Source: an archaeon
Lineage (GTDB): Archaea; Asgardarchaeota; Heimdallarchaeia; Heimdallarchaeales; JAJRWK01
Assembly: GCA_024276795.1 (NCBI GenBank)
Contig: JAJRWK010000032.1
Span: forward strand, 1-16,668
Reading direction: 5' to 3'
DNA length: 16,668 nucleotides
The notes beneath the pieces are model-generated. The model was not told the DNA's origin. It saw only the letters and a program-made list of their open reading frames with translations, and searched no databases. Below, piece after piece: positions 2 to 15,272 of the stretch. Position 1 is the first letter of the stretch, and every line of letters begins with the position of its first letter. Made by a program: the position numbers and the translations under genes.

Positions 2-2413
2 ATAGAGGAAAGCAATCCCTCATTCAATGAATCAGTACTAGACTATCAAGAGGACTATTCTATACTAGTAACGTTCAAAGACGGCCTAAACGGGTCAGTA
101 ATCAAAATAGGTTCATTTACTAGAAACTCTCAATCCAATGAGAGTTCCAACAATATCCAAGTAACATTCAACCTACTCCCCAATGGATCATACTCCTTCG
201 ATCTCACGGTTAACAGTTTTGTTAATCAGACGATCGCCATCATATGGACACTCAATGCTGAAGGATACGATATTGTGAACTACAAGCTAATCCTGTTCAC
301 AAGCCCGCGACCAATTGACCAAATAGTTGCATCTCCAACTTCAGAATTGATTGTTGGAGAAACTCCAAGCCCTTCGTTTGTTTCCTTTAAAGACAACATT
401 ACGGGACTTCAGGTTTACATACCGGAAGACAATACAACAATTCATTATTATGTTTATTCAGACCTAGCACTTTTCAATGGCTCAGATTCTTGGTATTGGG
501 AAACGATACCTGGTGGGATTGGTCTTTACATTTACATTATTCCAGCAGAAAACGATGCAGGAAAAATCATCACTTTGAAATTACCTGTTCAGATAGATGG
601 ATATGACTTAGTCATTCTCGAAGTGTCTGTCAAAGTTGCACCTTTAATCTCGACCTCACTGAATTATGTGACCGTGGGTTCTCTTCATTACTTCGAGGAA
701 GGACAAGTATTGCTTAACTATGCAGACGAAAACGGCACTTTGCCAGCTTTTGATGTCTCCATTGTTGCAATTAACGCATCTGATGCATTTAAGCTAGTAT
801 CGATTAGTCAGCTACCCAATGACTCACGAATTGTCGAGTTTCGCGTAATGGAAAAGCTTCCCAACAATATCTTAATCCTCAACATCTCCACTTCAAGTCC
901 AGGATACGAGACACGTTCAATATTAATCCAGATAACCATGATTCGAGGTGATGTGGAGCTACTCTACTCCGACATAGGCCCCGTCCCCGTGTACAACGAA
1001 ACTGCAAACATCGTAATAGAGACCTTTGCTTACGGACAACCAGTAAATGCAGTAGTCATAGTTGAGAATTACAATGGAACGAAACCCCCACTCATTACTC
1101 CCGCAAACATGTCTTCACAATTTACTCTCATCATTTATTTGGATAACAAAGATGCAAACACGACTCTAGCAATCCGCCTTGTCATCAATACGGAGACCTT
1201 GTATGGTGAACAAACAATTTATGTGTCCGTCTTACCCCTAGCAAAAATCAACATTGACGTTGAAATTAGTGGTACCCTTGCTCCAGGCCAGAACTTTACA
1301 GTACTCATAACAGCAAGCGCTGAAGAAGCCACGCAACTACTAGCTCTAAACCAAGCATCAAATAACATAGACTTTTCAAAGATCAATGTGTCCATATTCG
1401 CGGCATTCACTCTTGCGGATGGATCCACCGTCTTGCAAAGCGAAAACATCACTCTTTCGACGGATGGAATTGCTGTTGCGGGGCCATTCACTGTTCCACT
1501 TAATGCAATGAATGCTTCTCTTAGTATCACGGCAAAAGGACTTGGCATTGCACCGGTAGAAATAAGCTCGTCCGTTTCAATTTCTTCACCAACGGGTCCT
1601 ACAACACTGGGTCCCGGAAACCAGAATGGTATACCAACGATCTATGTTCTTGCAGGAATTGCAACCGTAATTGGACTTGCAGCCCTCTTATTTATTATCA
1701 GACTTGTCCGAAAGAAGAAAGAACAACAACGAGAAGAGGAGACAAGGGCATTGCGCCTTATCGGTGAGGTAAGCAACGCACGGGCACTAATAATTGTTGA
1801 TAGAAGAACGGGATATGCAGTTTTCACTCACAAATTCCAAGATGTGCCCGTAGATCCTCAACTCATTGCAGGAATCTTACACGCCTATGGTGCTTTTGAT
1901 CAAGAGATCACAGGGGGAATGGCCATTGACGTTCCACCAGGATTTTATCGGGTTGAACTTGGAAATCACTTCATTAACCGTGTCGTCGGAGACCCGTATG
2001 ATATTTACTTAATCACTTCTGGCCCAACCGATTCTCTCAAGGAAGGATTGTTGGAATTTGCCGACTGGTTTACTAAGAAATTCAAAACTGATGAGCCAGT
2101 AACAGATCTGGAATTCTATGATAGTGAAAGCCATGAGATAGAGTACATGCTCAACAAAACACTCCACGGCTGGATAACTGAAGAGATCATAACCACGAAT
2201 AAGCCCCAAAGAAAACTAAGACCTCTGGAACAGGAGATCCTTAAATGGGTTGATGAAGAGGAATCAGGGGAATTCACCCAAATCATTGAGGAATTCTCAC
2301 ACACTGCCACCGTGCCTGAAATCTTCAACGCTGTAAAGAAATTGTTTGAAGAAGGCTACCTAATGGTTATGAAAAGTGATGACATGAACAACGATGAAAC
2401 ATTCTCGATTTAG
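2..2413 (+). CDS. Large N-glycosylated type-I surface/receptor-like protein (5'-truncated by window edge) with a cytosolic longin/roadblock-like module and a winged-helix-like tail
   Basis: The frame of the 275..2413 ORF stays open back to base 2 (IEESNPSFNESVLDYQEDYSILVTFKDGLNGS...). The GTG at 275 is therefore not the real start and the gene continues upstream. The ectodomain is about 543 aa with about 20 N-x-S/T sequons. A single TM helix IPTIYVLAGIATVIGLAALLFIIRLV (nt 1631-1708) is followed by RKKKEQQREEE. Next comes an alpha/beta module (ALIIVDRRTGYAVFTHKF...LIAGILHAYGAFDQEI...YDIYLITSG...LLEFADWFTKKF, about nt 1778-2086). The tail is HTH-like (LEQEILKWVDEEESGEFTQIIEEF..VPEIFNAVKKLFEEGYLMV). 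Confidence 0.8.
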   Translation: MEESNPSFNESVLDYQEDYSILVTFKDGLNGSVIKIGSFTRNSQSNESSNNIQVTFNLLPNGSYSFDLTVNSFVNQTIAIIWTLNAEGYDIVNYKLILFTSPRPIDQIVASPTSELIVGETPSPSFVSFKDNITGLQVYIPEDNTTIHYYVYSDLALFNGSDSWYWETIPGGIGLYIYIIPAENDAGKIITLKLPVQIDGYDLVILEVSVKVAPLISTSLNYVTVGSLHYFEEGQVLLNYADENGTLPAFDVSIVAINASDAFKLVSISQLPNDSRIVEFRVMEKLPNNILILNISTSSPGYETRSILIQITMIRGDVELLYSDIGPVPVYNETANIVIETFAYGQPVNAVVIVENYNGTKPPLITPANMSSQFTLIIYLDNKDANTTLAIRLVINTETLYGEQTIYVSVLPLAKINIDVEISGTLAPGQNFTVLITASAEEATQLLALNQASNNIDFSKINVSIFAAFTLADGSTVLQSENITLSTDGIAVAGPFTVPLNAMNASLSITAKGLGIAPVEISSSVSISSPTGPTTLGPGNQNGIPTIYVLAGIATVIGLAALLFIIRLVRKKKEQQREEETRALRLIGEVSNARALIIVDRRTGYAVFTHKFQDVPVDPQLIAGILHAYGAFDQEITGGMAIDVPPGFYRVELGNHFINRVVGDPYDIYLITSGPTDSLKEGLLEFADWFTKKFKTDEPVTDLEFYDSESHEIEYMLNKTLHGWITEEIITTNKPQRKLRPLEQEILKWVDEEESGEFTQIIEEFSHTATVPEIFNAVKKLFEEGYLMVMKSDDMNNDETFSI

Positions 2414-2614
2414 TAGCGAACAACAGCTTAACAATGTTACTAAAATACAAATGGCCTCTCATCTTACCTGGAAAAAGCGGCACGATGGGAAGCATTTCCT
2501 CTGCTACATTATGCGGAATAATGGATAGTAGGTAACACCCTGGGTTCACAGTTGTTCCAAACACACAAAGACCGGACACTAGCGACTTGTCTTCAGATGC
2601 TAGTAGTGGAGCCA

Positions 2615-3421
2615 TTACTCGGGCAGCAGATTATACATGGAGATCATACGTAGCAGATCTTTCTCTGTGAATATTCCAACAAGTTTCTCATTAGAAGTGA
2701 TTGGAACAGCACCAATATTCTTCCCCATCATAAGATTCACAATTTCTTTGACTGAAGCATTTCGATCTGCGGTGATCACCGGCGTTGTAGCAATTTCACT
2801 CACCTTTACCTCCAGCAAGGTACTATCCTTTTCGAGAAGAGAGTCTTTTCTCCGATGCAACACTTTCAAAATATCGGAAGCAGTTAAAATACCCTCCACG
2901 GTTTCGTGGTCTGAAGAAACAACAAGTCTGCGAATTTTGTTATGAGCCATGGACTTGATTGCGTGCTTTATCGATTTAGTGGGCTCAATTGTGATGACAT
3001 TGGAGGTGAAAAACTCTTCCAAGCTAGCATCTGCAAGAGATCCTGCAAAATGCTTGACAATGTCACGCTCGGTAACAATTCCCCCTAATGTTCCTTGTTG
3101 GTCAGTCACTAGTAATAGCGCGCCAACATTATTGCGATCCATCAGATTGACCGCTTCTTGAACAGAAGCCCTCGCGTCAATAACGATGGGTCTTGAGCTC
3201 ATGAATTCTTGAACTGGTATTGAGAGAACCGTCGGCAAGTTTTCCTCGGCTAGAACAGAAATAATATCCTTGACCGTAATCATGCCCGTAATTTGTCCCA
3301 CGTTGTCCAGGACAGGCAGACGTCGGATATTATTCTCAACCATTATCTCGACAGCATCCAACAACGTCTTATCATCTTCAATAAAGATTGTTTCAAGGGT
3401 AGCAATACCGGCGATTTCCAT
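2615..3421 (-). CDS. CBS-domain protein (two CBS pairs, four CBS repeats)
   Basis: Four repeats of the CBS pattern are present. They are TLLDAVEIMVENNIRRLPVLD..GMITVKDIISVL, SVQEAVNLMDRNNVGALLLV..GIVTERDIVKHF, SIKHAIKSMAHNKIRRLVVS..GILTASDILKVL and SVKEIVNLMMGKNIGAVPIT..GIFTEKDLLRMI. ATG start, 268 aa. Confidence 0.9.
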   Translation of the reverse strand: MEIAGIATLETIFIEDDKTLLDAVEIMVENNIRRLPVLDNVGQITGMITVKDIISVLAEENLPTVLSIPVQEFMSSRPIVIDARASVQEAVNLMDRNNVGALLLVTDQQGTLGGIVTERDIVKHFAGSLADASLEEFFTSNVITIEPTKSIKHAIKSMAHNKIRRLVVSSDHETVEGILTASDILKVLHRRKDSLLEKDSTLLEVKVSEIATTPVITADRNASVKEIVNLMMGKNIGAVPITSNEKLVGIFTEKDLLRMISMYNLLPE

Positions 3422-3530
3422 ATTAACTCATGTATTCGTAAATTTCTAACTTTATGAAAATTCCGCATGATTGTTCCGCAATACGGGAAAATACATTAAG
3501 ATTGCAAGCTATTCTTGAGGAAAAGCATGC

Positions 3531-3626
3531 TGGTGCCCCGGCCGGGATTTGAACCCGGGTTGCCGGCTTTCTTCAGAAATGATCTTCGAAAGGCCGGAGT
3601 CCTGGGCCGGACTAGACGACCGGGGC
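3531..3626 (-). tRNA. tRNA-Glu (anticodon UUC) with 18-nt intron at the canonical 37/38 site and genomically encoded CCA
   Basis: The reverse complement folds as a cloverleaf. Acceptor GCCCCGG/CCGGGGC. D stem GTCT/GGAC with loop AGTCCGGCCCA. Anticodon stem CCGGC/GCCGG with loop CT-TTC-G[intron AAGATCATTTCTGAAGAA]A. Variable loop of 4 nt. T arm CCGGG-TTCAAAT-CCCGG. Discriminator A, then CCA. A T-run follows the 3' end on the minus strand. Confidence 0.9.
3569..3586 (-). other. tRNA-Glu intron (18 nt)
   Basis: There are 25 nt between the two halves of the anticodon stem. Of these, 7 form the loop CUUUCGA and the remaining AAGATCATTTCTGAAGAA is removable. The exact boundary can shift by 1 nt because of the flanking A. 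Confidence 0.75.
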
Positions 3627-3790
3627 TTTAAAACAAGCCGTCATGATCTGCCAGCATAACACAAACCTTCGCATTTCATTTTATATCTTTCTCTTGGTGC
3701 CACATAATATCGTCAGTCATTCTTCCCGGCATCCGCGATAAGTGCCTTGCTCCAAAAAGACAAATTAAGCAGTGTTTCGATTAATGACAT

Positions 3791-4405
3791 GTGAGTGGTT
3801 CCGCAGAGATTAGAGACGAAGAGCTTCGGTCCATAACTGATATGTTCATCAATGACCGTAGGTCAAAAGCGTTCGAAGCCCTTCAAGAAACGTTTCTAGG
3901 ATGGATGGAGGAAAAAGAATTAGACGATATTGAACATGCCATCATTCAATTCAGTGATTGGCTCACAAAACAAGGATACGAAGTAGAAGCTGCTTGGCTC
4001 CTAGCACGATTACTTTTCCTTCATTTGTCCCATGGAAATATTCAAGGTGCTCGAGCAATCGCCCCAAAACTTGAAGAATATGTTTCCCTCTCTCCGTCTG
4101 CACAAATTGCTTTGCAACAATACAAGATTCGGATGGAGCGAAAAGAAACCATTTTCTCGCCTATGACCATCGAGAGAAGGTCATTTCTTGGAGTCGATAT
4201 TCCCAAGAAAGAAACCCCTCTTGCGTTATTTGATTCAGTAGACGAGGCAAAGGAATGGATTAAGAAGACATTTGGTGAAGGCATTTACGAAGTGGTTCTC
4301 TTAGAAGAACGATCAAATATTTCTCAACATGTAACAGTTCCCATTGGGAAGGTCACAGAATACGAGATCATTGAGGAAAGATACGAGGGCATGAAACCAG
4401 AGTAA
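3791..4405 (+). CDS. Hypothetical protein (helical N-terminal half, no family recognised)
   Basis: A 204-aa ORF bounded upstream by in-frame TAA TGA. The start is GTG at 3791, with the first ATG at 3842. A weak A/T box AAATTAAG (3762-3769) lies about 26 nt upstream of the GTG. Composition is similar to neighbouring genes. I recognise no motif. Confidence 0.55.
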   Translation: MSGSAEIRDEELRSITDMFINDRRSKAFEALQETFLGWMEEKELDDIEHAIIQFSDWLTKQGYEVEAAWLLARLLFLHLSHGNIQGARAIAPKLEEYVSLSPSAQIALQQYKIRMERKETIFSPMTIERRSFLGVDIPKKETPLALFDSVDEAKEWIKKTFGEGIYEVVLLEERSNISQHVTVPIGKVTEYEIIEERYEGMKPE

Positions 4406-4483
4406 TTGCTCTTAGAGAAAAACACCAAAGATCTTAGCCGTCTCTTCCCCTTGGCTTTTGGCTTTGAAAACCATATTCCGTAG

Positions 4484-5398
4484 TCATTTTGGCATTAGAG
4501 ACCTTAAGAATTGAAGTGTGGACGGAAGATCCTTCTGTGAAATCCCCCCAAGCAGAATTTCTTGAACTCCAATTGAATCCAATTCTCTAAGTTTTCGCTG
4601 GACAGCCTTTCTTTCCATCACTAAGCAGAATTCGTCTGCAAGTAAATGGAGTTTGTCAAGAGGGAGCTCCTCTAGTCTTGTTGTTTTTTTCTTTATCTTC
4701 AGAAGAATGCTTGATATTTCCGTGGGAAAAGCCTCTAGGGTCTTTCTTGATACGGAAGAAATCACCATATTTAGGAGGGATATATTTCGCTGTTGATATT
4801 TTTCGTCATTTGGGAAAAATACAGGGATGAATGTCGATACGGTTTTGAAGGGATTCTTTTCTAGGAGATGAGAGAGTTCATGCACGCTACCTGTGTTTCC
4901 AATATAACCGTCAACAATGTCACAAAGCGATGAGAGAACTGATTGATTCTGTGTGCCTAAGAAAACCAAGGGGACACTCCTAGGGCGTTTCATTTGCAGA
5001 TGCGGATATTTAGGATCCTCGCCCTTTTGAATGAAATTGACAATACTGTGTACCTTTTCTATGAAAAGCGAAACAGATCTTTCCAACCGTAGTAGATTAG
5101 AACTTCTTTTGTCACCAGCACCCAAACCAATGATCACAGGTTCTGAAACAAGCTCTTGCAAAGTTAAGATTTTTCGAACAATATTGAATGGATGATACAG
5201 AGAGGTTGCTACGACGGAAATCCCAAATCGTTTCTTTTGAAGTATGGCAGACAAACCAAGCAATGTAAGAAATGGATCATATCCCTCAATGGAATCGCCA
5301 ATCCAAAAACGATGCACACCCTCTTGAAACGCTATTTCTGCGTGGCTTACGTGTGTTTGAAATGGGGACTTGGGGGCAATAGCGACACTAAGTTTCAT
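4484..5398 (-). CDS. Luciferase-like monooxygenase (LLM) family flavin/F420-dependent oxidoreductase
   Basis: The N-terminal half follows the LLM/Mer-type TIM-barrel pattern: MKLSVAIAP...AEIAFQEGVHRFWIGDSIEGYDPFLTLLGLSAILQKKRFGISVVATSLYHPFNIVRKILTLQELVSEPVIIGLGAGD. ATG start, with a TATA-like box 26 nt upstream. Confidence 0.7.
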   Translation of the reverse strand: MKLSVAIAPKSPFQTHVSHAEIAFQEGVHRFWIGDSIEGYDPFLTLLGLSAILQKKRFGISVVATSLYHPFNIVRKILTLQELVSEPVIIGLGAGDKRSSNLLRLERSVSLFIEKVHSIVNFIQKGEDPKYPHLQMKRPRSVPLVFLGTQNQSVLSSLCDIVDGYIGNTGSVHELSHLLEKNPFKTVSTFIPVFFPNDEKYQQRNISLLNMVISSVSRKTLEAFPTEISSILLKIKKKTTRLEELPLDKLHLLADEFCLVMERKAVQRKLRELDSIGVQEILLGGISQKDLPSTLQFLRSLMPK

Positions 5399-5420
5399 TA
5401 AGAGAATTCGGAATGAAGGG

Positions 5421-5427
5421 TTTATAG
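5421..5427 (-). promoter_or_regulatory. Candidate TATA box (CTATAAA on minus strand) for the LLM oxidoreductase gene
   Basis: Centred about 26 nt upstream of the ATG at 5398. This implies a leaderless or near-leaderless transcript. Confidence 0.4.
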
Positions 5428-5455
5428 TTGTTCTTAGAGATACAAGACGTGGGGT

Positions 5456-6973
5456 CTATTCGAGATGTAGCGCCTCCTTCAAGTAAAGCAGACGGTTTTG
5501 CACAACGCTGACAAACTCATCGTTGAAGGTCAAGAAGCCAGAATAACTCCCTCTTACGTCTCTGTACAAGACCAGTGCCACCCGAATTATTGGCAAATCG
5601 ATTACTGCAAAACGATACTCTGAAAGCGGAATCAAGCCTCGAGAAACATAAATGCCTCTCGAAGTCCGCAGATCGAGACTTTCATCCGGACCAAGCTCTA
5701 GGAATAGTTCTAGGGGAACTCCTTGATTTATGAGAGACATGAGACGATCCATCGCTGTTTTCAAACCCCGGGAATCTCCAATTCCAAGAGCCAATGGCCT
5801 AGGACGACCCGTTGAATAGTCATCAAAACTCCCTTGCTTCGCAAAATAGGTCGCCATTTCTTCCATAAAACGCATAAAAGCAAGAGAGGAAGCAACATCA
5901 AGAACGACTTTCCAGCTTTTCTCAGGGGTCTTCATGATTTCTGCAATTCTTTCTGAATCTAACTCTCTTATTGCGCTTCCGAGCTGAGTCAAAATATCAA
6001 TTACGTCAACTTCTACGGGAATATCGTTACGTTGCCTTTGAATGATCATTTGGAAAATCCCGGTTCCAGCGACTTGTTGGAATCTTGCTTGTGCCACTGG
6101 TAGGTCTAGTGAATAAATAAAACGGATCAATTCTCCAAGCGGTCCCTCCATACCAATTTGGGCAAGCTCAGATCGGATCATGGGAATAATTACTTGCTCC
6201 AAGCTAGGAATCAATTTTCGATAAATCAAACGAAGAACCTTGCTAAGAACTAATTCTGATCCTGCTTCAAAGAATTGGATAGCCTTTGCCGCATCAATCC
6301 TTGAAACAAAAGCCCACCATTCCTCTTCTTCTCCATAGGAAAAAGGATGAATCACGTGGAACCATTTTTGGTCTTGTGTTATGACGCGGACATTGACTTC
6401 GCTTAATTGGACATGCAAAAGATCAACAATATCCCTCCAAAAGAACTGCGAGTGCTGAAGAGCGCTGGCCTCCCGATGGTTAATCAATATGGGCCATCCC
6501 TCTGGAGTAGCGATTCCGATGAGGTCAATAAAGGGATATTTTTCCATGTATTCGTGAATAATCTGTTCAGCATGAGCCATTTCCCGAGGGTTCACAGGAA
6601 GTTTTTCACCTAGTAGGAGATCCAAGTCTCGTCTTAATGCCCTCAGTTCATGTTGTGCTGCCCCCTTTTCAATAATGAGCTCTTCTGACTCCTTTAGACG
6701 TTGCATGATTCTATTTAGAAGCCTACGTGCTCCATTTCTGCTTACGGTTTGACTACATCTGAGAGCTACGAGGAAGTCACCGTCTCGTAGATATTGAATA
6801 TAGGAAGTTTCTAATTCCTCCATGATGATGTTTTCGCCTGTTGCTTCAAGCCCTAAAGCATCTTGAGCAGCAATTCTTCCTGCTGATAACATATTGTCTG
6901 TTTTTGCTTCTCCAAGATGGATAATGGGTGCGCTCTTGTAGAGCACATAGAGCTCAAGAATATCCGAATGCAT
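5456..6973 (-). CDS. Hypothetical multi-domain protein with about three longin/roadblock-like modules
   Basis: 505 aa, ATG start. Module 1 (aa 1-95): ILELYVLYKSAPIIHL..MLSAGRIAAQDALG..YIQYLRDGDFLVALRCS..ARRLLNRIMQRLKE. Module 2 (aa ~125-245) has a roadblock/LC7-like order: AEQIIHEYMEKYPFIDLIGIATPEGWPILINH..FFWRDIVDLLHVQL..VRVITQDQKWFHVIHPF..WWAFVSRID..AIQFFEAG. Module 3 (C-terminus): LKTAMDRLMSLI..YRFAVIDLPIIRVALVLYRD..GFLTFNDEFVSVVQNRLLYLKEAL. It lies only 24 nt downstream of the preceding gene, and the spacer is purine-rich (AAAGGCGGGG). Confidence 0.8.
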   Translation of the reverse strand: MHSDILELYVLYKSAPIIHLGEAKTDNMLSAGRIAAQDALGLEATGENIIMEELETSYIQYLRDGDFLVALRCSQTVSRNGARRLLNRIMQRLKESEELIIEKGAAQHELRALRRDLDLLLGEKLPVNPREMAHAEQIIHEYMEKYPFIDLIGIATPEGWPILINHREASALQHSQFFWRDIVDLLHVQLSEVNVRVITQDQKWFHVIHPFSYGEEEEWWAFVSRIDAAKAIQFFEAGSELVLSKVLRLIYRKLIPSLEQVIIPMIRSELAQIGMEGPLGELIRFIYSLDLPVAQARFQQVAGTGIFQMIIQRQRNDIPVEVDVIDILTQLGSAIRELDSERIAEIMKTPEKSWKVVLDVASSLAFMRFMEEMATYFAKQGSFDDYSTGRPRPLALGIGDSRGLKTAMDRLMSLINQGVPLELFLELGPDESLDLRTSRGIYVSRGLIPLSEYRFAVIDLPIIRVALVLYRDVRGSYSGFLTFNDEFVSVVQNRLLYLKEALHLE

Positions 6974-6997
6974 GATTGCCCCGCCTTTTCATCTTAA

Positions 6998-8434
6998 TCA
7001 CGATATTGGAATGAGCCTTGCTAAGGGGTGTGGAATTATTTTTTTCAAGCACTCAAAGACCAGCACTCGATCGTCCTTTTCAATACTTTCCATGAGCGAT
7101 ATAAACGTTTGGCGTCTTTCGAGTAATTCTGTCAGCAATGCCATGGCTTTTGCAATGATTTGGTGTTGATGTGCTTCAAAGTAAATGCGGGCGTCCTGAG
7201 GGGGGAGCGAAAAGATCGGGCTCCATTTCATAATAAGCTCTCTCGAAAGACCTCTCAAACCCCCTCCGCGTACTGACCCAGTTGCTGGATCAACAATAAC
7301 TGCTCCATAACGAACGTAGTCCTCAATAAGAGAATCTGAAGGCGGAATGCCTACGATGTCACACTCGATCAAGGAATGAGAAAAAATCTCGAAATCCAGA
7401 TATGATGTTAGGGACGCCAAGGCAAGAAGAACTATACGAATATCACCAGGATTTCCCACAACTGCAATGGTTCTTTTTGTTGTTAGGGCTTGAATGACTG
7501 GTAACCATGCATTGCCAAGAATACGTCTTGTCAAATCAGGTGTTACATCATGACTGCGTGGGAGGAATCGATCTAATGTTGGGTCGTAAACCATTTGTAG
7601 CCCAAGACTTTGCCAGCGATCGATAAGGAGCGTTTTGAAATCAAGCCAGCGATCCAAATCATGATCTGATTCGAATCCTTGCAACGAGCTATTTGCTGAA
7701 CTTTTATTCAAAATCTTGTGTGCCAGTTCCTTGAGCTGGCTTCTCACACTAAGGATTGAAACTATGTGCATCGAAGGAAAAACCATTCCTAAGAGACGAA
7801 GATTAGGCTGAGAAATACCTACAATGTAGGCAAATACTTCTCTTTCACCTAAAGGAAGGAACCCATCAAACAATCCATGTTCTTCGAATTGATCCAAGTA
7901 GGGGGTTAGCAGATGTTCTAACTGATTTCGAATGTCGAAGGGTAGTTCTCGATCAATCCAAAAAGATTGATTCTCTTTAACTTCGAGGAAAAAGGGCTGA
8001 ACGCCTTTGATTTCCTCTGTCGGATAAAAAGTAGTCAGCACTTCTCTCACTAGTTCTTCGATTTCGGCAACAGATTTATCCCAGAAATCATAAACTTCGA
8101 ACCGGTTTTTGTTCATCTCATTTATGCGAGTGTCAACTTCTTCCTGAATAATGCTCAGGATTTCTGTTGCAAGTTCTTCGTCGCTCCCCTTATCCATTAC
8201 AAGAACGTAGATTATGTTTTCGTCAAAACTAGATCGCAACACCAAAGTATTAGCAGTCCCCATATTAAGCTGACTAATTTCCGAGCCGGAAATCTCGCTT
8301 GCAAATGATGTGATTGCGCTTAGGAAACCGGCGGCGAGATCAACGTTTTTGAAAGTGAAGCCACTGAAATGAAGATGTAGGACAGGAACTCCTCCATAAA
8401 TTACTAAAAAATCGCGGATATTCATAAGAACCAC
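6998..8434 (-). CDS. Hypothetical protein: two N-terminal longin/roadblock-like modules plus a C-terminal alpha/beta + helical region (DENN-core-like?)
   Basis: 478 aa. The start is GTG at 8434, or ATG three codons later at 8425. Module 1: [78 protein letters not shown]. Module 2: [79 protein letters not shown]. C-terminal: [37 protein letters not shown]...[29 protein letters not shown], followed by a helical tail. Confidence 0.8.
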   Translation of the reverse strand: [478 protein letters not shown]

Positions 8435-8539
8435 GTGAAATCCTAAGATTCAATGCGTTTTTCTCCCCTTTAAGCCATTGGTTTAAAAACAAATAGGAAA
8501 AGCCACCAAAGACTAGTTGCAATGATTATTGACAGAACG

Positions 8540-8547
8540 ATAATTTT
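8540..8547 (+). promoter_or_regulatory. Candidate TATA box (ATAATTTT) for argF
   Basis: An A/T octamer centred about 30 nt upstream of the ATG at 8574. No Shine-Dalgarno-like purine patch lies between them. Confidence 0.35.
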
Positions 8548-8573
8548 TTCCGCAATTACCAGTAGCAATAACC

Positions 8574-9497
8574 ATGAAACGAGATTTTCTAACTCTGCTC
8601 GACTATTCAAAGGAAGAGATTAATGAGCTATTGGATATTTCTGACGAAATGAAGCGCTGGATGAAAGAAGGCACCAATGAGAGGCCTCTTTCAGGAAAAT
8701 CAATGGCAATGATCTTTCAAAAAAGGAGTACCAGAACAAGGGTAAGCACCGAAACAGGAATGGCATTTCTTGGAGGTCATGCTCTATTCTTGGGAATGTC
8801 AGACATTCAGCTAGGGAAAAATGAGACGTTGAAAGACACCGCCCTAGTACTTTCCCGATTCAATGACTTGATTCTGGCGAGAGTCTATGGACACGAGGAT
8901 GTCGAAGAACTCGCAAAGTACAGCAGAGTACCCGTAATTAACGCTCTAAGTGACAAATTCCACCCACTCCAGATTCTTGCCGATCTTATGACTATCCGAG
9001 AACACTTCGGCAAACTAGAAGGGTTAAAAATTGCGTGGGTTGGGGATGGAAACAATGTCTGCCATTCATTGATGATTGGTGCAACAAAAGTAGGAATGCA
9101 TATGAGCGTTGCAACGCCAAGAGGCTACGAACCAGCTGAAGACGTGATTGAGACCACTAAGAAAATTGCAGAGAAAAAAGGTGTTACCCTCACCTTTACA
9201 AATGATCCCAAAGAAGCAGTCAAGGATGCCGACATCATCGTGACAGACACTTGGATATCAATGGGTCAGGATGCTGAAAAAGAAAAAAGACTCCGTGATT
9301 TTGCGGGATATCAAGTTACTGAAGAATTAGGAAAGCTTGCAAAGCCTCATTGGAAATTCATGCACTGTTTACCCAGAAAACCACAAGAAGTATCTGACGA
9401 AGTATTTTACAGCGAACGAAGCATTGTTTTTGATGAGGCCGAAAACCGAATGTATACAGTAATGGCCGTTATGATGAAGCTTCTCGAAAAAAGATAA
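8574..9497 (+). CDS. argF: Ornithine carbamoyltransferase
   Basis: Carbamoyl-phosphate motif [21 protein letters not shown] motif. Ornithine-binding [8 protein letters not shown]. HCLP motif ([12 protein letters not shown]). The 307-aa length is typical of OTC, and the protein is colinear with OTCs I know. Confidence 0.95.
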   Translation: [307 protein letters not shown]

Positions 9498-9510
9498 AAA
9501 GAGAAGCAAA

Positions 9511-9601
9511 TGGCGGACCGGGCGGGATTCGAACCCGCGGCCTGCGGCTTTCTTCTCCAAGAATAGAAGGCCGCCGCTCTATCCTCCTGAGCTACCGGTC
9601 C
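9511..9601 (-). tRNA. tRNA-Arg (anticodon UCU) with 14-nt intron at the canonical 37/38 site and encoded CCA
   Basis: Reverse complement: acceptor GGACCGG/CCGGTCC. TA. D arm GCTC-AGGAGGATA-GAGC. Anticodon stem GCGGC/GCCGC with loop CT-TCT-A[intron TTCTTGGAGAAGAA]A. Variable AGGCC. T arm GCGGG-TTCGAAT-CCCGC. Discriminator G, then CCA. A T-rich tract follows on the minus strand. The 3' end lies 13 nt from the argF stop. Confidence 0.9.
9550..9563 (-). other. tRNA-Arg intron (14 nt)
   Basis: There are 21 nt between the anticodon-stem halves. Of these, 7 form the loop CUUCUAA and the remaining TTCTTGGAGAAGAA is removable. Confidence 0.75.
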
Positions 9602-9756
9602 CTATAAGATTTACTTGTAAGCAACTCGCTTATCAGCAATGATTGTGTCATGAGTGCTTTTCTAAAACTTTTCGAATTGTGGGTTATCTTATTTCACCAA
9701 GAACTCCAGTCACCATTGCTCAATAATCGACGTTTTTCGTTCTGCAAATGATGTTG

Positions 9757-9802
9757 AGAAAAAAAGAGAGGGTCGAATTATTGCATGAGGCTTAGAAAAA
9801 TC
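9757..9802 (-). terminator. Oligo-T termination region downstream of the 8-TM/roadblock gene
   Basis: On the minus strand a T5 run (AGATTTTTCT) lies about 15-20 nt after the stop. A T7 run (CTCTCTTTTTTTCTC, plus-strand A7 at 9759-9765) lies about 52 nt after the stop at 9817. Oligo-U tracts are the usual archaeal termination signal. Confidence 0.4.
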
Positions 9803-9816
9803 TGTTGCTCAGGATG

Positions 9817-11070
9817 TTATGACTCAATTAGTTGGATGAAGGGGAATATTGAAACGAGAAGATCCTCTGCATCCCTGAAGACAGCCACGTTTCCAGAATA
9901 CTGCTCGATCTCCTCTTGATATTTGGAATAAAAGTCTCGCACGAATTTGTCAAATCCACGTCTAAGGAAATATGAAGTGCGATCTGCAAGGACGATCCCT
10001 ACAATATAACGATAGGACTTCACCATGATGGTTCGATCTGAAAGACTTATGGACCGAAGTTCTCCTTGAGCACCAGATAGCTCACTAACAAGAGAAGCGA
10101 TTGCTATAATTGCTGGCGATTTCAAAGAAGCATCCGGCAGCTTTTCGACGCCCTTGGGAATCTCAATGAGCCCATGAAAGTATGCGGTTCCAGATTCGTC
10201 AATAATAAACATCTCGTATATGTTGAAGGGAAACGAGTAAGCATACGTGGGCAACATGATGTAAACCAAAAGAAGCAACATAATACCAAAAGTGAACATC
10301 CACGTGTTATAAACACGAATTTCCGTTCCAAAAACTCGGAGGGAATTGCCAAACGGAGCAAGGAAAAAAGATATCAGAAGAACAGTTGCTCCAATATAAT
10401 TAACAAATGATGCAAATTCAGCGGCCAGTGTATCAGATTCCCTGAAAATCCGGTAGTACACGTAGATTCCAAAGATCGCCATAAAAAAGAGAGAAATGCT
10501 GAACGCGGCGGTATAACCCGTTATTAAGTCATTAAATTCCGTTATTCGTTCGATAGTATTCTGAAAAGGTCTCAAGATAACCAAAGCAGCGAGGGGAGCC
10601 GCAGAACCGAGAATAAGTATGGCTCGGATGAGATTGGGGCGATCATTCGAGGTCAGTTCCAGATGCAGGTAAAATAGGATCACTGCAAGAGCAAGAAAAG
10701 CATCTGCTACATTTGCGATAAAGCCATCCGTAGATCGATGAAATGCCCCTTCCCCTTTGTTTTCATAATCAATTATGAGCAAGAAGAGCCACAGCGCAAC
10801 CGCCGAGGCAAAGGCAAGCATTAATTCAAGACCTTGAACTGATTCTTGAATTACATGTCGGTAGAGAATATACAGCATAATAAGAATCCCGATCGTGGGA
10901 GGCAATAAGTACCAACGAGTGTTGCTGATAGGCTCGATGAGCCAATAAAATATGACTCCTGTTAAGAACACAAAACCAAATGACACTGCGATCCCCACTA
11001 GAAAAGCTATCGTCCCCAGAGCAGGAGCGGGAATATAATCCTTCAGCATGCGTTTCGAATGGGTGTTCAT
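9817..11070 (-). CDS. Polytopic membrane protein (about 8 TM helices) with a C-terminal cytosolic longin/roadblock-like module
   Basis: 417 aa, ATG start. Hydrophobic helices include IAFLVGIAVSFGFVFLTGVIFYWLI, PTIGILIMLYILY, LMLAFASAVALWLFLLII, ADAFLALAVILFYLHL, ILILGSAAPLAALVIL, AAFSISLFFMAIFGIYVYY, IGATVLLISFFLAPF and MFTFGIMLLLLVYIML. The C-terminal module (nt ~9820-10224) reads IYEMFIIDESGTAYFHGLIEI..SPAIIAIASLVSELSG..LRSISLSDRTIMVKSYRYIVGIVLAD..FLRRGFDKFVRDFYSKY. Confidence 0.85.
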   Translation of the reverse strand: MNTHSKRMLKDYIPAPALGTIAFLVGIAVSFGFVFLTGVIFYWLIEPISNTRWYLLPPTIGILIMLYILYRHVIQESVQGLELMLAFASAVALWLFLLIIDYENKGEGAFHRSTDGFIANVADAFLALAVILFYLHLELTSNDRPNLIRAILILGSAAPLAALVILRPFQNTIERITEFNDLITGYTAAFSISLFFMAIFGIYVYYRIFRESDTLAAEFASFVNYIGATVLLISFFLAPFGNSLRVFGTEIRVYNTWMFTFGIMLLLLVYIMLPTYAYSFPFNIYEMFIIDESGTAYFHGLIEIPKGVEKLPDASLKSPAIIAIASLVSELSGAQGELRSISLSDRTIMVKSYRYIVGIVLADRTSYFLRRGFDKFVRDFYSKYQEEIEQYSGNVAVFRDAEDLLVSIFPFIQLIES

Positions 11071-11092
11071 TGTAGTTTCTTTTTCAGTCCAA

Positions 11093-11100
11093 GTTAAAAA
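11093..11100 (-). promoter_or_regulatory. Candidate TATA box (TTTTTAAC on minus strand) for the 8-TM/roadblock gene
   Basis: Centred about 26 nt upstream of the ATG at 11070. Confidence 0.4.
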
Positions 11101-11170
11101 CTTAGGCTAATTTTGAAGGTCTTAAAACTAGGAGAATTGCAAAAGGTGAAAAAATGGGTAAATTCTTACA

Positions 11171-11935
11171 TCAAATAGGAACAATCACCATCTGATCCTT
11201 GTCTGCTGAAGAGTGAGCTTTGCTCTGAATTTTGACAAAACCCAACAATTCCAGGGTTCTAACTCGATCCCACAATTGGTCTATACTTAATTCCAAGAGT
11301 GTTGAAAGTTTGCCAAGGAAAATACCTTGGGGAAACTTTAATAGGGCGACTGCAACATCTTGAAGCTCATTTGGGAGCTGTTTGACAACACCAAGGTCGT
11401 AAAGAGATTCTCCCATTTCGGCCCCTTTGATCTTCCATGACAATCGTTTATCCAATTCATCCCTAATCTGGCGAAGAATTGCAGTCGCTTCAGTTTGGCA
11501 AATATCGGTGGTAGAAAATAGAGAATCGAATTCAATGTATTGGGTAATGTGTTCGAAGACTTCTTGGATAAATTCCTCATATTGGGATAAGAGGGGTCGC
11601 CGTTCTTCGAGAAACTGAATGCAGAAAAGCAGTACTCTTGTTATTGACCCAATTCCTTGCTGAGCCAAGTCCAGCTGAATGGGAATAGGGTAGATATAAG
11701 TTTGGAGACGAACAGACTTTACCTCAATTGTGTCCAAAGGTCCATGCAATTTCCGAGGAGGAAGCAAATTCTCTCCAATTCCGGCTGTTAAAATGATTCT
11801 TGAGGCAAACATTTCTCGAGAAACTATGTCAAACAAGTCCTCACGAGAAGATGAGCAATAGAATGGACCTAAGGCGTGGTGAGAGAATACCAATGTAATG
11901 TCGTAAATGAGCGAGCTCGCTCTTGAGGGATTCAC
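11171..11935 (-). CDS. Hypothetical protein: N-terminal longin/uDENN-like alpha/beta region plus C-terminal winged-helix-like domain
   Basis: 254 aa, GTG start at 11935, supported by a TATA-like box 26-27 nt upstream. N-terminal pattern: IYDITLVFSHHALGPFYCSS..DIVSREMFASRIILTAG..LDTIEVKSVRLQTYIYPIPI..ITRVLLFCIQFLEERRPLLSQYEEFIQEVFEHITQYI. C-terminal HTH-like: VAVALLKFPQGIFLGKLSTLLELSIDQLWDRVRTLELLGFVKIQ. Confidence 0.7.
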   Translation of the reverse strand: MNPSRASSLIYDITLVFSHHALGPFYCSSSREDLFDIVSREMFASRIILTAGIGENLLPPRKLHGPLDTIEVKSVRLQTYIYPIPIQLDLAQQGIGSITRVLLFCIQFLEERRPLLSQYEEFIQEVFEHITQYIEFDSLFSTTDICQTEATAILRQIRDELDKRLSWKIKGAEMGESLYDLGVVKQLPNELQDVAVALLKFPQGIFLGKLSTLLELSIDQLWDRVRTLELLGFVKIQSKAHSSADKDQMVIVPI

Positions 11936-14453: not shown

Positions 14454-15272
14454 GTGAGAAGAACGCCGACGATTACAACGTATAGCACAAGAGGAGGCAG
14501 TGGAAAAACACTGATTTCTGTGAATCTTGCGCAGTGGTTCGCAGAAGTAATGGGCAAAAAGACCGTAATCATTGACGCAGATATTGAAGCACCCTCCATC
14601 GACAAAATCTTCAAAACAGGTAAAGAAAGTAGAAGTTCTAACAAAACATGGGTTCACTACTTGGATAATTATTTTGAAAAAATCGACGAAGCAATACTCC
14701 CAACAAGTCATGATAACCTTTTCATGATTATTTCCCCTCCCCCTGAAATAGGAAAGAGATTCTTGGCCACGAAAAGATCAGAATGGTGGTCTATGGCACT
14801 AAAACGGAGCATTGTTGCCCAAAAAAGATTATTGGGAGAACTTGGCTTCGACTGGATAATCTTTGACAACCAATCAGGATTATCCATGAATAGTGTAAAC
14901 CACATGGCTCTTGCTGACAAAAGCCTACTAGTCCTGCGACCAGCGAACTATGGAGTAGATGCTACTCTCGAATTCCTACATGAAATGGTTTCGATTCTTC
15001 AGACTAAAATACAGTCACGGAGGGACTATTTTGCTTGGAACCAAGTTCCTAAACCTCAAAACGAGAAAGAAGAAGAGTTGCTCGAAATGTTCTTGGGTAA
15101 ATGGGAGCAATTTTTTGTAGATAGGGGGGTAAGGCCCACCGTCAGAATTCCTTATGTTCACAGCTTAGCAATAGAGCTTCTAAACAAAGAAGCTGGAATC
15201 TTTGCACATATCCTGGAATTCTATGAACACATTGACAGGATAGGGAAAATCTTGCTCAGTTCAGAAGACTGA
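14454..15272 (+). CDS. MinD/ParA-superfamily (SIMIBI) P-loop NTPase, atypical Walker motifs
   Basis: Deviant Walker A reads STRGGSGKTLISVNLA. A'/switch I region: VIIDADIEAPSIDKIF. Walker B-like: WIIFDNQSGLS. In-frame TAA at 14445. The Walker A precedes the first ATG, so the GTG at 14454 (or the CTG at 14451) must be the start. Confidence 0.8.
   Translation: MRRTPTITTYSTRGGSGKTLISVNLAQWFAEVMGKKTVIIDADIEAPSIDKIFKTGKESRSSNKTWVHYLDNYFEKIDEAILPTSHDNLFMIISPPPEIGKRFLATKRSEWWSMALKRSIVAQKRLLGELGFDWIIFDNQSGLSMNSVNHMALADKSLLVLRPANYGVDATLEFLHEMVSILQTKIQSRRDYFAWNQVPKPQNEKEEELLEMFLGKWEQFFVDRGVRPTVRIPYVHSLAIELLNKEAGIFAHILEFYEHIDRIGKILLSSED

Follow-up and report, generated by a model that had tools for sequence, protein, structure and literature searches.

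Longin and roadblock domains dimerise, and the resulting dimers form platforms that act as guanine nucleotide exchange factors (GEFs), GTPase-activating proteins (GAPs) or scaffolds for small GTPases of the Ras superfamily. Established examples are MglB and FLCN-FNIP together with Ragulator, TRAPP and Mon1-Ccz1, with the latter three and folliculin serving as switching platforms of eukaryotic small GTPases. The expansion of both domains in Asgard archaea is a main argument for an archaeal origin of membrane-trafficking logic. Here, we describe a group of genes on JAJRWK010000032.1, a complete contig of 16,668 bp which, at its full length, is referred to as the window. We place the probability at roughly 55% that these genes form a lineage-restricted cluster built on very diverged members of the longin/roadblock superfamily, which act as GTPase platforms.

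The two folds are distinguished by their topology. Roadblock domains have a five-stranded sheet in the order α-ββ-α-βββ-α, which includes an N-terminal helix, and longin domains have the order ββαβββ followed by two C-terminal helices, with no helix at the N-terminus (PMC10933270). The hallmark described for the FLCN/SMCR8/NPRL2/C9orf72 GAP longins and for one Heimdallarchaeial longin class is a GP dipeptide at the β1-β2 turn; GAP longins of the FLCN/SMCR8 type combine this GP with a catalytic arginine finger (PMC12290439). Asgard genomes contain about 130 roadblock/longin gene families, often with lineage-specific multidomain architectures (10.1101/2020.10.19.343400), and 38 roadblock and 41 longin domains are predicted in one Loki genome (PMC10933270). 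The Asgard expansions, lineage-specific multidomain architectures included, are thus well documented.

The original prediction, which was made from the DNA alone, proposed that a common longin/roadblock-like module occurs in five proteins of the window. Thirteen substantial open reading frames (ORFs) were examined here (14 had been counted previously), and their positions and those of the modules agree with that prediction. The claim holds for three of the five proteins, namely at the N-termini of g06 and g05 (g06N and g05N) and in the tail of g01; it is weak for the C-terminus of g08 (g08C) and is not supported for the N-terminus of g09 (g09N). By a rough estimate, the Loki domains correspond to <2% of genes, so that three to five in 13 would be a local enrichment, as far as a comparison across lineages allows. 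The proteins and their regions are as follows, with structures predicted by AlphaFold2 (AF2) and graded by the predicted local distance difference test (pLDDT):

2-2413, + strand: g01, surface protein, ORF open to the contig start
1628-1714, +: single transmembrane (TM) helix of g01, from a hydropathy scan
1715-2092, +: predicted cytosolic roadblock-type module of g01 (α-ββ-α-βββ-α), from AF2, profile and conservation
2225-2410, +: C-terminal, three-helix, winged-helix-like end of g01, low confidence, from AF2 helices of low pLDDT
5456-6973, - strand: g05, 505-aa orphan protein
6674-6973, -: N-terminal longin-like module of g05, from homology to g06N
6269-6598, -: middle module of g05, candidate second roadblock-like copy (α-ββ-α-ββ-α), from low-confidence AF2 in two independent jobs
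6998-8434, -: g06, orphan protein of 478 aa, or of 475 aa if counted from the ATG at 8425
8027-8425, -: predicted longin domain at the N-terminus of g06, of the same type as the first longins of Mon1, Fuzzy and HPS1 (ββαβββαα), from homolog P0006, AF2 and Foldseek
9817-11070, -: g08, 417 aa, polytopic with about 8 TM segments by hydropathy
9820-10230, -: cytosolic C-terminal module of g08, possibly longin-like (ββαββ(β)αα), weak
11171-11935, -: g09, 254 aa, conserved N-terminal region and winged-helix-like C-terminus
11600-11935, -: N-terminal region of g09, the claimed longin module, with a conserved SHxxxGPFxC

Homology and modelling together make the longin module of g06 a solid assignment. 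In a protein database of 5.8 billion clusters, g06 has three members only, all of them at least 86% identical. A HMMER scan of 1.84 billion representatives produced one meaningful extra match, the standalone 130-aa protein P0005, which matches residues 6-129 of g06 (E 3.8e-4 for the whole library). The full-length version of this protein, P0006, has 135 aa, is about 30% identical to g06N and matches the Pfam model Fuz_longin_1 (PF19036), which is the first longin domain of FUZ/MON1/HPS1, at E 4.3e-5 and 24.2 bits, just below the gathering cut-off of 26.1. Neither g06 nor g05 matches Fuz_longin_1 itself. When g06N was modelled by AF2 with a small multiple sequence alignment (MSA), it was predicted to adopt the longin order ββαβββαα with a pLDDT of 54-77; here, strands at 3-10 and 13-19 are followed by a helix at 28-44, strands at 50-55, 58-64 and 71-78, a helix at 83-103 and then another helix. 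The same order was obtained for residues 5-133 from the single sequence (pLDDT 50-56). P0006 is located on a 184-kb contig, two genes from a Ras/Arf/Roc-type GTPase gene. At L004:10001-12234, the P0006 gene is followed by two genes without annotation, for 202 and 134 aa, and then by that for the GTPase, which has 196 aa; the region may be a small longin-GTPase neighbourhood. A separate match of g06 residues 100-126 ("RFEIYxFWD") to P0004, a 355-aa protein with about five tandem repeats of ~60 aa, has an E of 1.4e-4 and looks repeat-driven and spurious.

The longin module of g05 is likewise solid, as judged by its homology to g06N. Profile-profile comparison of g05N and g06N by hhalign gives P=6.4e-6 and a probability of 85%, and g06 finds a g05 ortholog from a more distant lineage, on contig L009, at E about 4e-4 (BLAST and tblastn). 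This ortholog is 53% identical to g05 and that on L002 is 95% identical. The AF2 model of g05N is partial, β-α-ββ-α, with a pLDDT of 40-55. On this evidence g05 and g06 are adjacent paralogs of ~500 aa, at least in the N-terminal module, and the first 100-130 residues of each are assigned, by homology and predicted fold, to the first-longin domains of Mon1 and Fuzzy. Several copies of the module had been claimed for the pair at 5456-8434. The N-terminal ones stand; the sole candidate for an additional one is residues 126-235 of g05, which are predicted at low confidence as α-ββ-α-ββ-α (pLDDT 35-61). This middle module has no sequence similarity to the other modules by hhalign, and segment-by-segment hhalign detected no internal repeats in g05 and g06 apart from the N-terminal modules, so further copies in the pair are unproven.

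The third module lies in g01, a giant type-I surface protein of which the window, cut off by the contig end, contains only the last 800 aa. The ectodomain in the window contains 15 N-x-S/T sequons, and the single TM helix is followed by a basic stretch, RKKKEQQR, from which the tail is taken to be cytosolic. An ortholog, P0007 (L008:824-5587), is 1587 aa long, carries 61 N-x-S/T sequons in its ectodomain and is 39% identical overall; its first 60 residues contain no obvious signal peptide by eye. The tail module is 71% identical between the two proteins, the ectodomain 33% and the remainder of the tail 32-37%. When the g06N/g05N profile was compared with 70 real ORFs, g01 was the top non-member (E=0.0012, in register); P0007 followed in register at E=0.034, and the g01 tail matched the g05N/g06N profile by hhalign with P=0.003-0.02. 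The AF2 model of the tail (pLDDT 50-81) has the roadblock order α-ββ-α-βββ-α, with a helix to 155 in model coordinates, strands at 157-164 and 170-175, a helix at 183-194, strands at 212-217, 220-226 and 230-236 and a helix at 241-258. Thus, it is reasonably supported by the model that the tail is of roadblock rather than longin type. In this it resembles the Roadblock/LC7 proteins (MglB, LAMTOR2/3, dynein LC7 and the Asgard structures 7f8m and 9jue), members of which are among the structural matches described below, but it fails the Pfam model Robl_LC7. Known roadblocks are small and soluble or are fused to GTPases, whereas the g01 module is TM-tethered to a surface glycoprotein and is followed by a winged-helix-like end, for which a PDB sequence search gave a weak PCI/eIF3e match (E=0.1).

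A true Robl_LC7 gene does adjoin the g01 ortholog. It encodes 133 aa, lies divergently upstream at L007:6612-7013 (-) and L008:148-549 (-), and its match to Robl_LC7 (PF03259) at 1.5e-10 served as the positive control for the profile searches. The equivalent region lies past the end of the window, so a sixth, canonical roadblock gene may have been lost beyond the contig end.

Comparison of the modules with one another supports a shared template, consisting of a strand pair, a helix ending in ..A..x..E.xG, three strands and a helix. In a MAFFT alignment it is alignable almost without gaps in four families, g06N, g05N, the g01 tail and g08C, which are collinear and share an L...A...G signature near the first helix. 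The proposed module is also the best-conserved segment in the distant ortholog of three proteins (g01 tail 71%, g05N 64%, g09N 49%), with g05 outside its N-terminal module being 40-55% identical. An earlier profile run against the 13 window proteins ranked g01, g08, g09 and g05 above all eight for which no module had been claimed; here, the g09 match lay outside the claimed module. Adding the g01 tail to the profile recruited neither g08 nor g09. Pairwise BLAST between the window proteins gave a best value of only E=0.15. When a joint, four-family profile was compared with the PDB, five of the seven best matches were longins (VAMP7 four times and TRAPP Bet5) at sub-significant E of 0.3-1.2.

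Two AF2 models were used for fold searches. Model 1 is a chimera of g06 and g05 built from the single sequence (mean pLDDT 34), of which g06N alone is interpretable. Model 2 is a chimera of g06N, the g01 tail, g08C, g09 and residues 1-251 of g05, built with a block-diagonal MSA. Foldseek searches of the PDB with model 1 gave no significant match and a list dominated by the longins of Ykt6, VAMP7 and Sec22, by MglB and LAMTOR and by Asgard roadblock structures. Model 2 gave 19 matches with E<1e-3, all of them longin proteins: Mon1, Ccz1, HPS1/HPS4 (BLOC-3), Fuzzy and Inturned were at the top (E 5e-7 to 7e-4), followed by AP-2 sigma. The VAMP7 match has a TM-score of 0.56 and a root-mean-square deviation of 2.5 Å over 99 columns. 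The further matches listed, to E 6e-3, are nearly all longin or roadblock proteins (VAMP7, the AP mu N-terminal domain, LAMTOR, Sec22b, MglB, TRAPP and dynein LC7). The top ranks of Mon1 and Ccz1 were not taken at face value because the tandem modules of the chimera mimic a tri-longin protein. What can safely be concluded is that the blocks modelled with confidence are predicted members of the longin/roadblock superfamily. Of the structures which the original prediction would have the modules adopt, the longin fold was found for g06N and the roadblock fold for the g01 tail; the g08C model reached a pLDDT of only 25-35, and that of g09N has no strands.

The cases of g08 and g09 are weaker, and it has to be considered that neither carries a longin or roadblock domain, that the template there is generic α/β amphipathic periodicity and that the module occurs in only three of the 13 ORFs. 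The g08C signal is borderline in the comparisons with the module profiles (E=0.017-0.057, in register; E=0.057 with the 70 ORFs), weakens to E=0.33 and so vanishes when the profile is broadened by the g01 tail, and has the low pLDDT noted above. On the other hand, g08C comes immediately behind the true members when the 70 ORFs are ranked, is collinear with the other modules with few gaps, and its low-confidence model still has the longin order minus one strand (ββαββαα). Taken together, sequence and model make it probable, if weakly so, that g08 ends in a longin-like domain. For g09N, profile-profile comparison with the g01 tail, the joint module profile and g06N gave nothing significant; it is unlike every module profile, and the AF2 model of g09 (pLDDT 25-38) lacks a β-sheet, so the module claimed for the 254-aa protein is not supported. 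It is the conserved half of the protein (49% identical to the distant ortholog; 19-25% in other parts, 33% overall) and keeps the motifs "SHxxxGPFxC" and "HGPxxTxExK", the former as "HHALGPFYC" and "HQIYGPFFC", with GP at the place where FLCN/SMCR8-type longins would have their β1-β2 turn (PMC12290439). This GP, at a putative turn position, is a lead only, and g09 may be part of the system. Mere periodicity in both g08C and g09N is, on balance, somewhat unlikely. The domains that accompany the modules in the original prediction, TM segments and winged-helix-like domains, are plausible by hydropathy, low-confidence AF2 and weak sequence matches. In a profile search, residues 127-214 of g09 (11294-11557, -) showed a weak similarity to the C-terminal domain of translation initiation factor IF3 (PDB 2ife, E 0.006, 88 columns), which includes "RFRGREM" against "KIKGAEMG" and may be due to chance.

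As to function, the most likely one by analogy is that of dimerising, membrane-tethered platforms for small GTPases which are encoded elsewhere. In this mechanism g05 and g06 would pair via their N-terminal longin domains, as do Mon1-Ccz1 or FLCN-FNIP, and the g01 tail would pair with a soluble roadblock protein, such as the Robl_LC7 protein whose gene adjoins the g01 ortholog on L007 and L008. Either such dimers or standalone roadblock proteins would be brought to the cytoplasmic side of the membrane by the tethered modules of g01 and g08, which would link the cell surface to a GTPase switch whose gene has another place in the genome.

Several observations weigh against a cluster of GTPase platforms. 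The function is assigned entirely by analogy. None of the five proteins matches a longin or roadblock model of Pfam or NCBIfam at E<=1, and sequence searches of the PDB with single proteins and with profiles gave nothing significant. The confidence of the AF2 models is low overall (mean pLDDT 34 and 44, with the g08 and g09 regions <40), and as the models are chimeras with tandem modules, the Foldseek output does not tell which block produced a match. In addition, the L009 lineage has g05 without g06; both g06 and g08 are missing at this locus, and therefore an obligate g05-g06 pair is not conserved. Finally, the window contains no gene for a small GTPase, and neither do the syntenic loci on L007-L009. 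The last point is uninformative for the window because, in the Asgard genome MK-D1, genes for small GTPases do not as a rule share operons with those for roadblock or longin proteins (PMC10933270).

The profile result requires comment. Even the excised modules have no Robl_LC7 or longin-family match in Pfam or NCBIfam at E<=10, and the models that found nothing include Robl_LC7, longin, MglB, LAMTOR, folliculin, DENN and the Fuz/Intu/Mon1 longins. The original prediction had named failure to hit such profiles as its own refutation and, read literally, that failure is what was found for all five proteins. In our assessment, the homology that leads transitively to Fuz_longin_1 and the predicted folds carry more weight, and current profile libraries appear to miss these modules owing to extreme divergence. 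What the evidence supports is only the fold assignment of three modules, and the value of the cluster is that of a set of candidates. The original prediction of a membrane-to-cytosol network is sustained to the same extent: for three of its modules the longin/roadblock fold is supported, while the ParA-like partner, the module of the 254-aa protein and the multiple copies in the pair are not.

That longin/roadblock folds are present does not by itself imply a GTPase, and they could work without one, as dimerisation or autoinhibitory domains like those of the longin SNAREs or as small-ligand sensors on a surface receptor and a membrane protein. Some roadblock/longin proteins do have GTPase-independent roles (PMC10933270), the window and L007-L009 are devoid of GTPase genes, and the longins of VAMP7, Ykt6 and Sec22 are among the best single-domain structural matches. 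VAMP7, Sec22b and Ykt6 also give weak sequence matches and, like g08, join a longin to a membrane anchor, but g08 has the order reversed (TM bundle, then longin), lacks a SNARE motif and is polytopic rather than tail-anchored. Moreover, the nearest sequence family, the first longin of Fuz and Mon1, binds GTPases, a Ras/Arf-like GTPase is encoded two genes away from P0006, and in Asgard archaea, as judged by the one genome examined for this, GTPase genes are usually unlinked to roadblock/longin genes in any case. We therefore consider a GTPase-independent role to be unlikely. Far less probable, and in our view close to negligible, is the proposal that the ParA/MinD-like SIMIBI ATPase encoded at 14454-15272 (+) serves as the partner NTPase. 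It shares the contig and is 2.5 kb from g09, but by Pfam and NCBIfam it is an ordinary SIMIBI protein, a deviant-Walker-A ATPase of ParA/MinD/AAA_31 type, and a transcription regulator and a Na/Ca exchanger on mixed strands intervene. This class is not known to pair with longin/roadblock platforms. There is no linkage in L008 and L009, contigs that stop short of the ATPase side of the cluster. As no link to the longin genes was found, the ATPase was rejected as the partner. Its P-loop reads "TRGGSGKT", with arginine in place of the lysine that typifies the deviant Walker A motif (KGG), and its best NCBIfam match, below cut-off, is the AAA ATPase domain of the KGGVGR-motif variant.

Two more specific identities can be considered for g05-g06, each of which would make the pair an archaeal counterpart of a eukaryotic heterodimer. 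In one, the pair is a tri-longin GEF of the Mon1-Ccz1/Fuzzy-Inturned/BLOC-3 type, with three longins in each subunit and a GTPase site formed by the first longin of one subunit and the first of the other. Like the tri-longin RabGEFs, g06 (and by homology g05) has an N-terminal longin, the sole Pfam link of which is Fuz_longin_1 through the standalone P0006; the two paralogs are side by side, their ~480-505 aa is the size of a tri-longin subunit, g05 has a low-confidence second module, and GEFs of this type lead the Foldseek list (E 5e-7 to 7e-4). That ranking is, however, probably an artefact of the tandem-module chimera. Direct profile matches are absent, including to Fuz_longin_2/3, Intu_longin and the Mon1/Ccz1 models, so that the first longin alone is supported, the full-length model is unusable (pLDDT 34), the L009 sister lineage carries g05 without its partner subunit, and the archaeal context has no known equivalent of Rab7, Rab23 or Rab32. 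No publication linking tri-longin proteins and Asgard archaea was found. We regard this identity as improbable. Still less likely, and the boldest version, is that such a prokaryotic tri-longin GEF works with membrane-tethered roadblock/longin receptors, the giant surface glycoprotein and the 8-TM protein; if true, the tri-longin RabGEF architecture and roadblock/longin membrane recruitment would predate eukaryotes and be present in a Heimdall-group archaeon.

In the other, both proteins would combine a longin with a DENN domain, as in the FLCN/FNIP or C9orf72/SMCR8 type, and form a heterodimeric GAP or regulator for Rag/Arf-like GTPases. A segment of g06 (nt 7235-7483, "TIAVVGNPGDIRIVLLALASLTS...CDIVGIPPS...GAVIVDPATG") bears some resemblance to the β-α-β core of DENN domains, which is a lead only. 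The exact domain organisation of FLCN is reported for proteins of some Heimdallarchaea (10.1101/2020.10.19.343400), and as in FLCN-FNIP, C9orf72-SMCR8 and the NPRL2/3 subunits of GATOR1, there are two longin-bearing paralogs, which form a heterodimer in the known systems and are proposed to do so here. The conserved GP of g09, at the putative β1-β2 turn position, is a further likeness to the GAP longins (PMC12290439). Against this, there is no Pfam match to DENN, uDENN, Folliculin, FNIP or SMCR8 and no match to the sequences of FLCN or DENN chains in the PDB, the g06 segment was not confidently modelled by AF2 (pLDDT about 30), no arginine finger was identified, and the β1-β2 turn is GGVP (G-V-P) in g06 and S/G-A-P in g05, with GP, as found in the GAP longins, in neither (PMC12290439). 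This identity is quite unlikely, a little more so than a tri-longin GEF and not as much as a tri-longin GEF with membrane receptors.

Diverged longin/roadblock platforms for GTPases thus remain our preferred reading, and the distribution of the genes shows how restricted such a cluster would be. By their sequences, the proteins occur in no more than three lineages, all closely related, among the public collections of proteins and contigs that were searched. Of the genomes in the GTDB species set, one alone encodes a relative of g06, a Candidatus Heimdallarchaeota metagenome-assembled genome (86% identity), and on this basis the contig is assigned to a Heimdall-group Asgard archaeon. The predicted Asgard origin is thereby borne out and is also supported by two unusually long tRNA genes (88-96 nt; Rfam scores 49 and 60 bits), the extra length of which is taken to indicate archaeal-type introns. 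The distant lineage (L007, L008 and L009) has orthologs of g01, g02, g03, g04, g05, g09 and argF, and neither g06 nor g08 was found at the syntenic positions on L009. Therefore, the g05-g06 pair and the TM-longin protein g08 would be recent, lineage-specific gains or losses. The order at L009:1-4300 is the g09 ortholog, IS200/IS605-like tnpA/tnpB ORFs (L009:1741-2768), argF and the g05 ortholog.

The cluster follows the phylum-level theme of many diverged roadblock/longin proteins in Asgard archaea but differs in that its families lie beyond current Pfam and NCBIfam models and occur in three closely related lineages only. What is new is the extreme divergence, the narrow distribution, the predicted roadblock-type domain on a giant surface glycoprotein and a concrete pair of the Mon1/Fuzzy longin type. 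As profile libraries miss some Asgard members, census numbers are therefore underestimates. With a roadblock-type domain as a fixed part of the cytoplasmic end of a very large surface glycoprotein, and perhaps a longin as part of a polytopic protein, outside and inside would be directly coupled; we know of no such coupling in eukaryotic systems. In the publications consulted on Asgard roadblock/longin proteins, there is no mention of these domains being tethered to surface glycoproteins or to polytopic membrane proteins. In addition, the pair of ~500-aa paralogs of Mon1/Fuzzy type makes a pre-eukaryotic origin of tri-longin or FLCN-like heterodimers testable on concrete genes.

The other features of the window are as follows:

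between g01 and g05 in the gene list: CBS protein, from a Pfam/NCBIfam scan
g03: 204 aa, no assigned function
4484-5398, -: g04, luciferase-like oxidoreductase
listed between g06 and g08: argF
further genes: ArsR-type winged-helix protein, Na/Ca exchanger and HEAT-repeat protein
14454-15272, +: ParA/MinD-like ATPase, from Pfam/NCBIfam
3531-3626, -: tRNA gene 1, tRNA-Arg(TCG) by ARAGORN
9511-9601, -: tRNA gene 2, found as tRNA by Rfam, no ARAGORN assignment

Between the window and L002:4344-5258, g04 is 71% identical, and the flanking g05 and the CBS protein are 95% and 97% identical, respectively, so that divergence is very uneven along the cluster.

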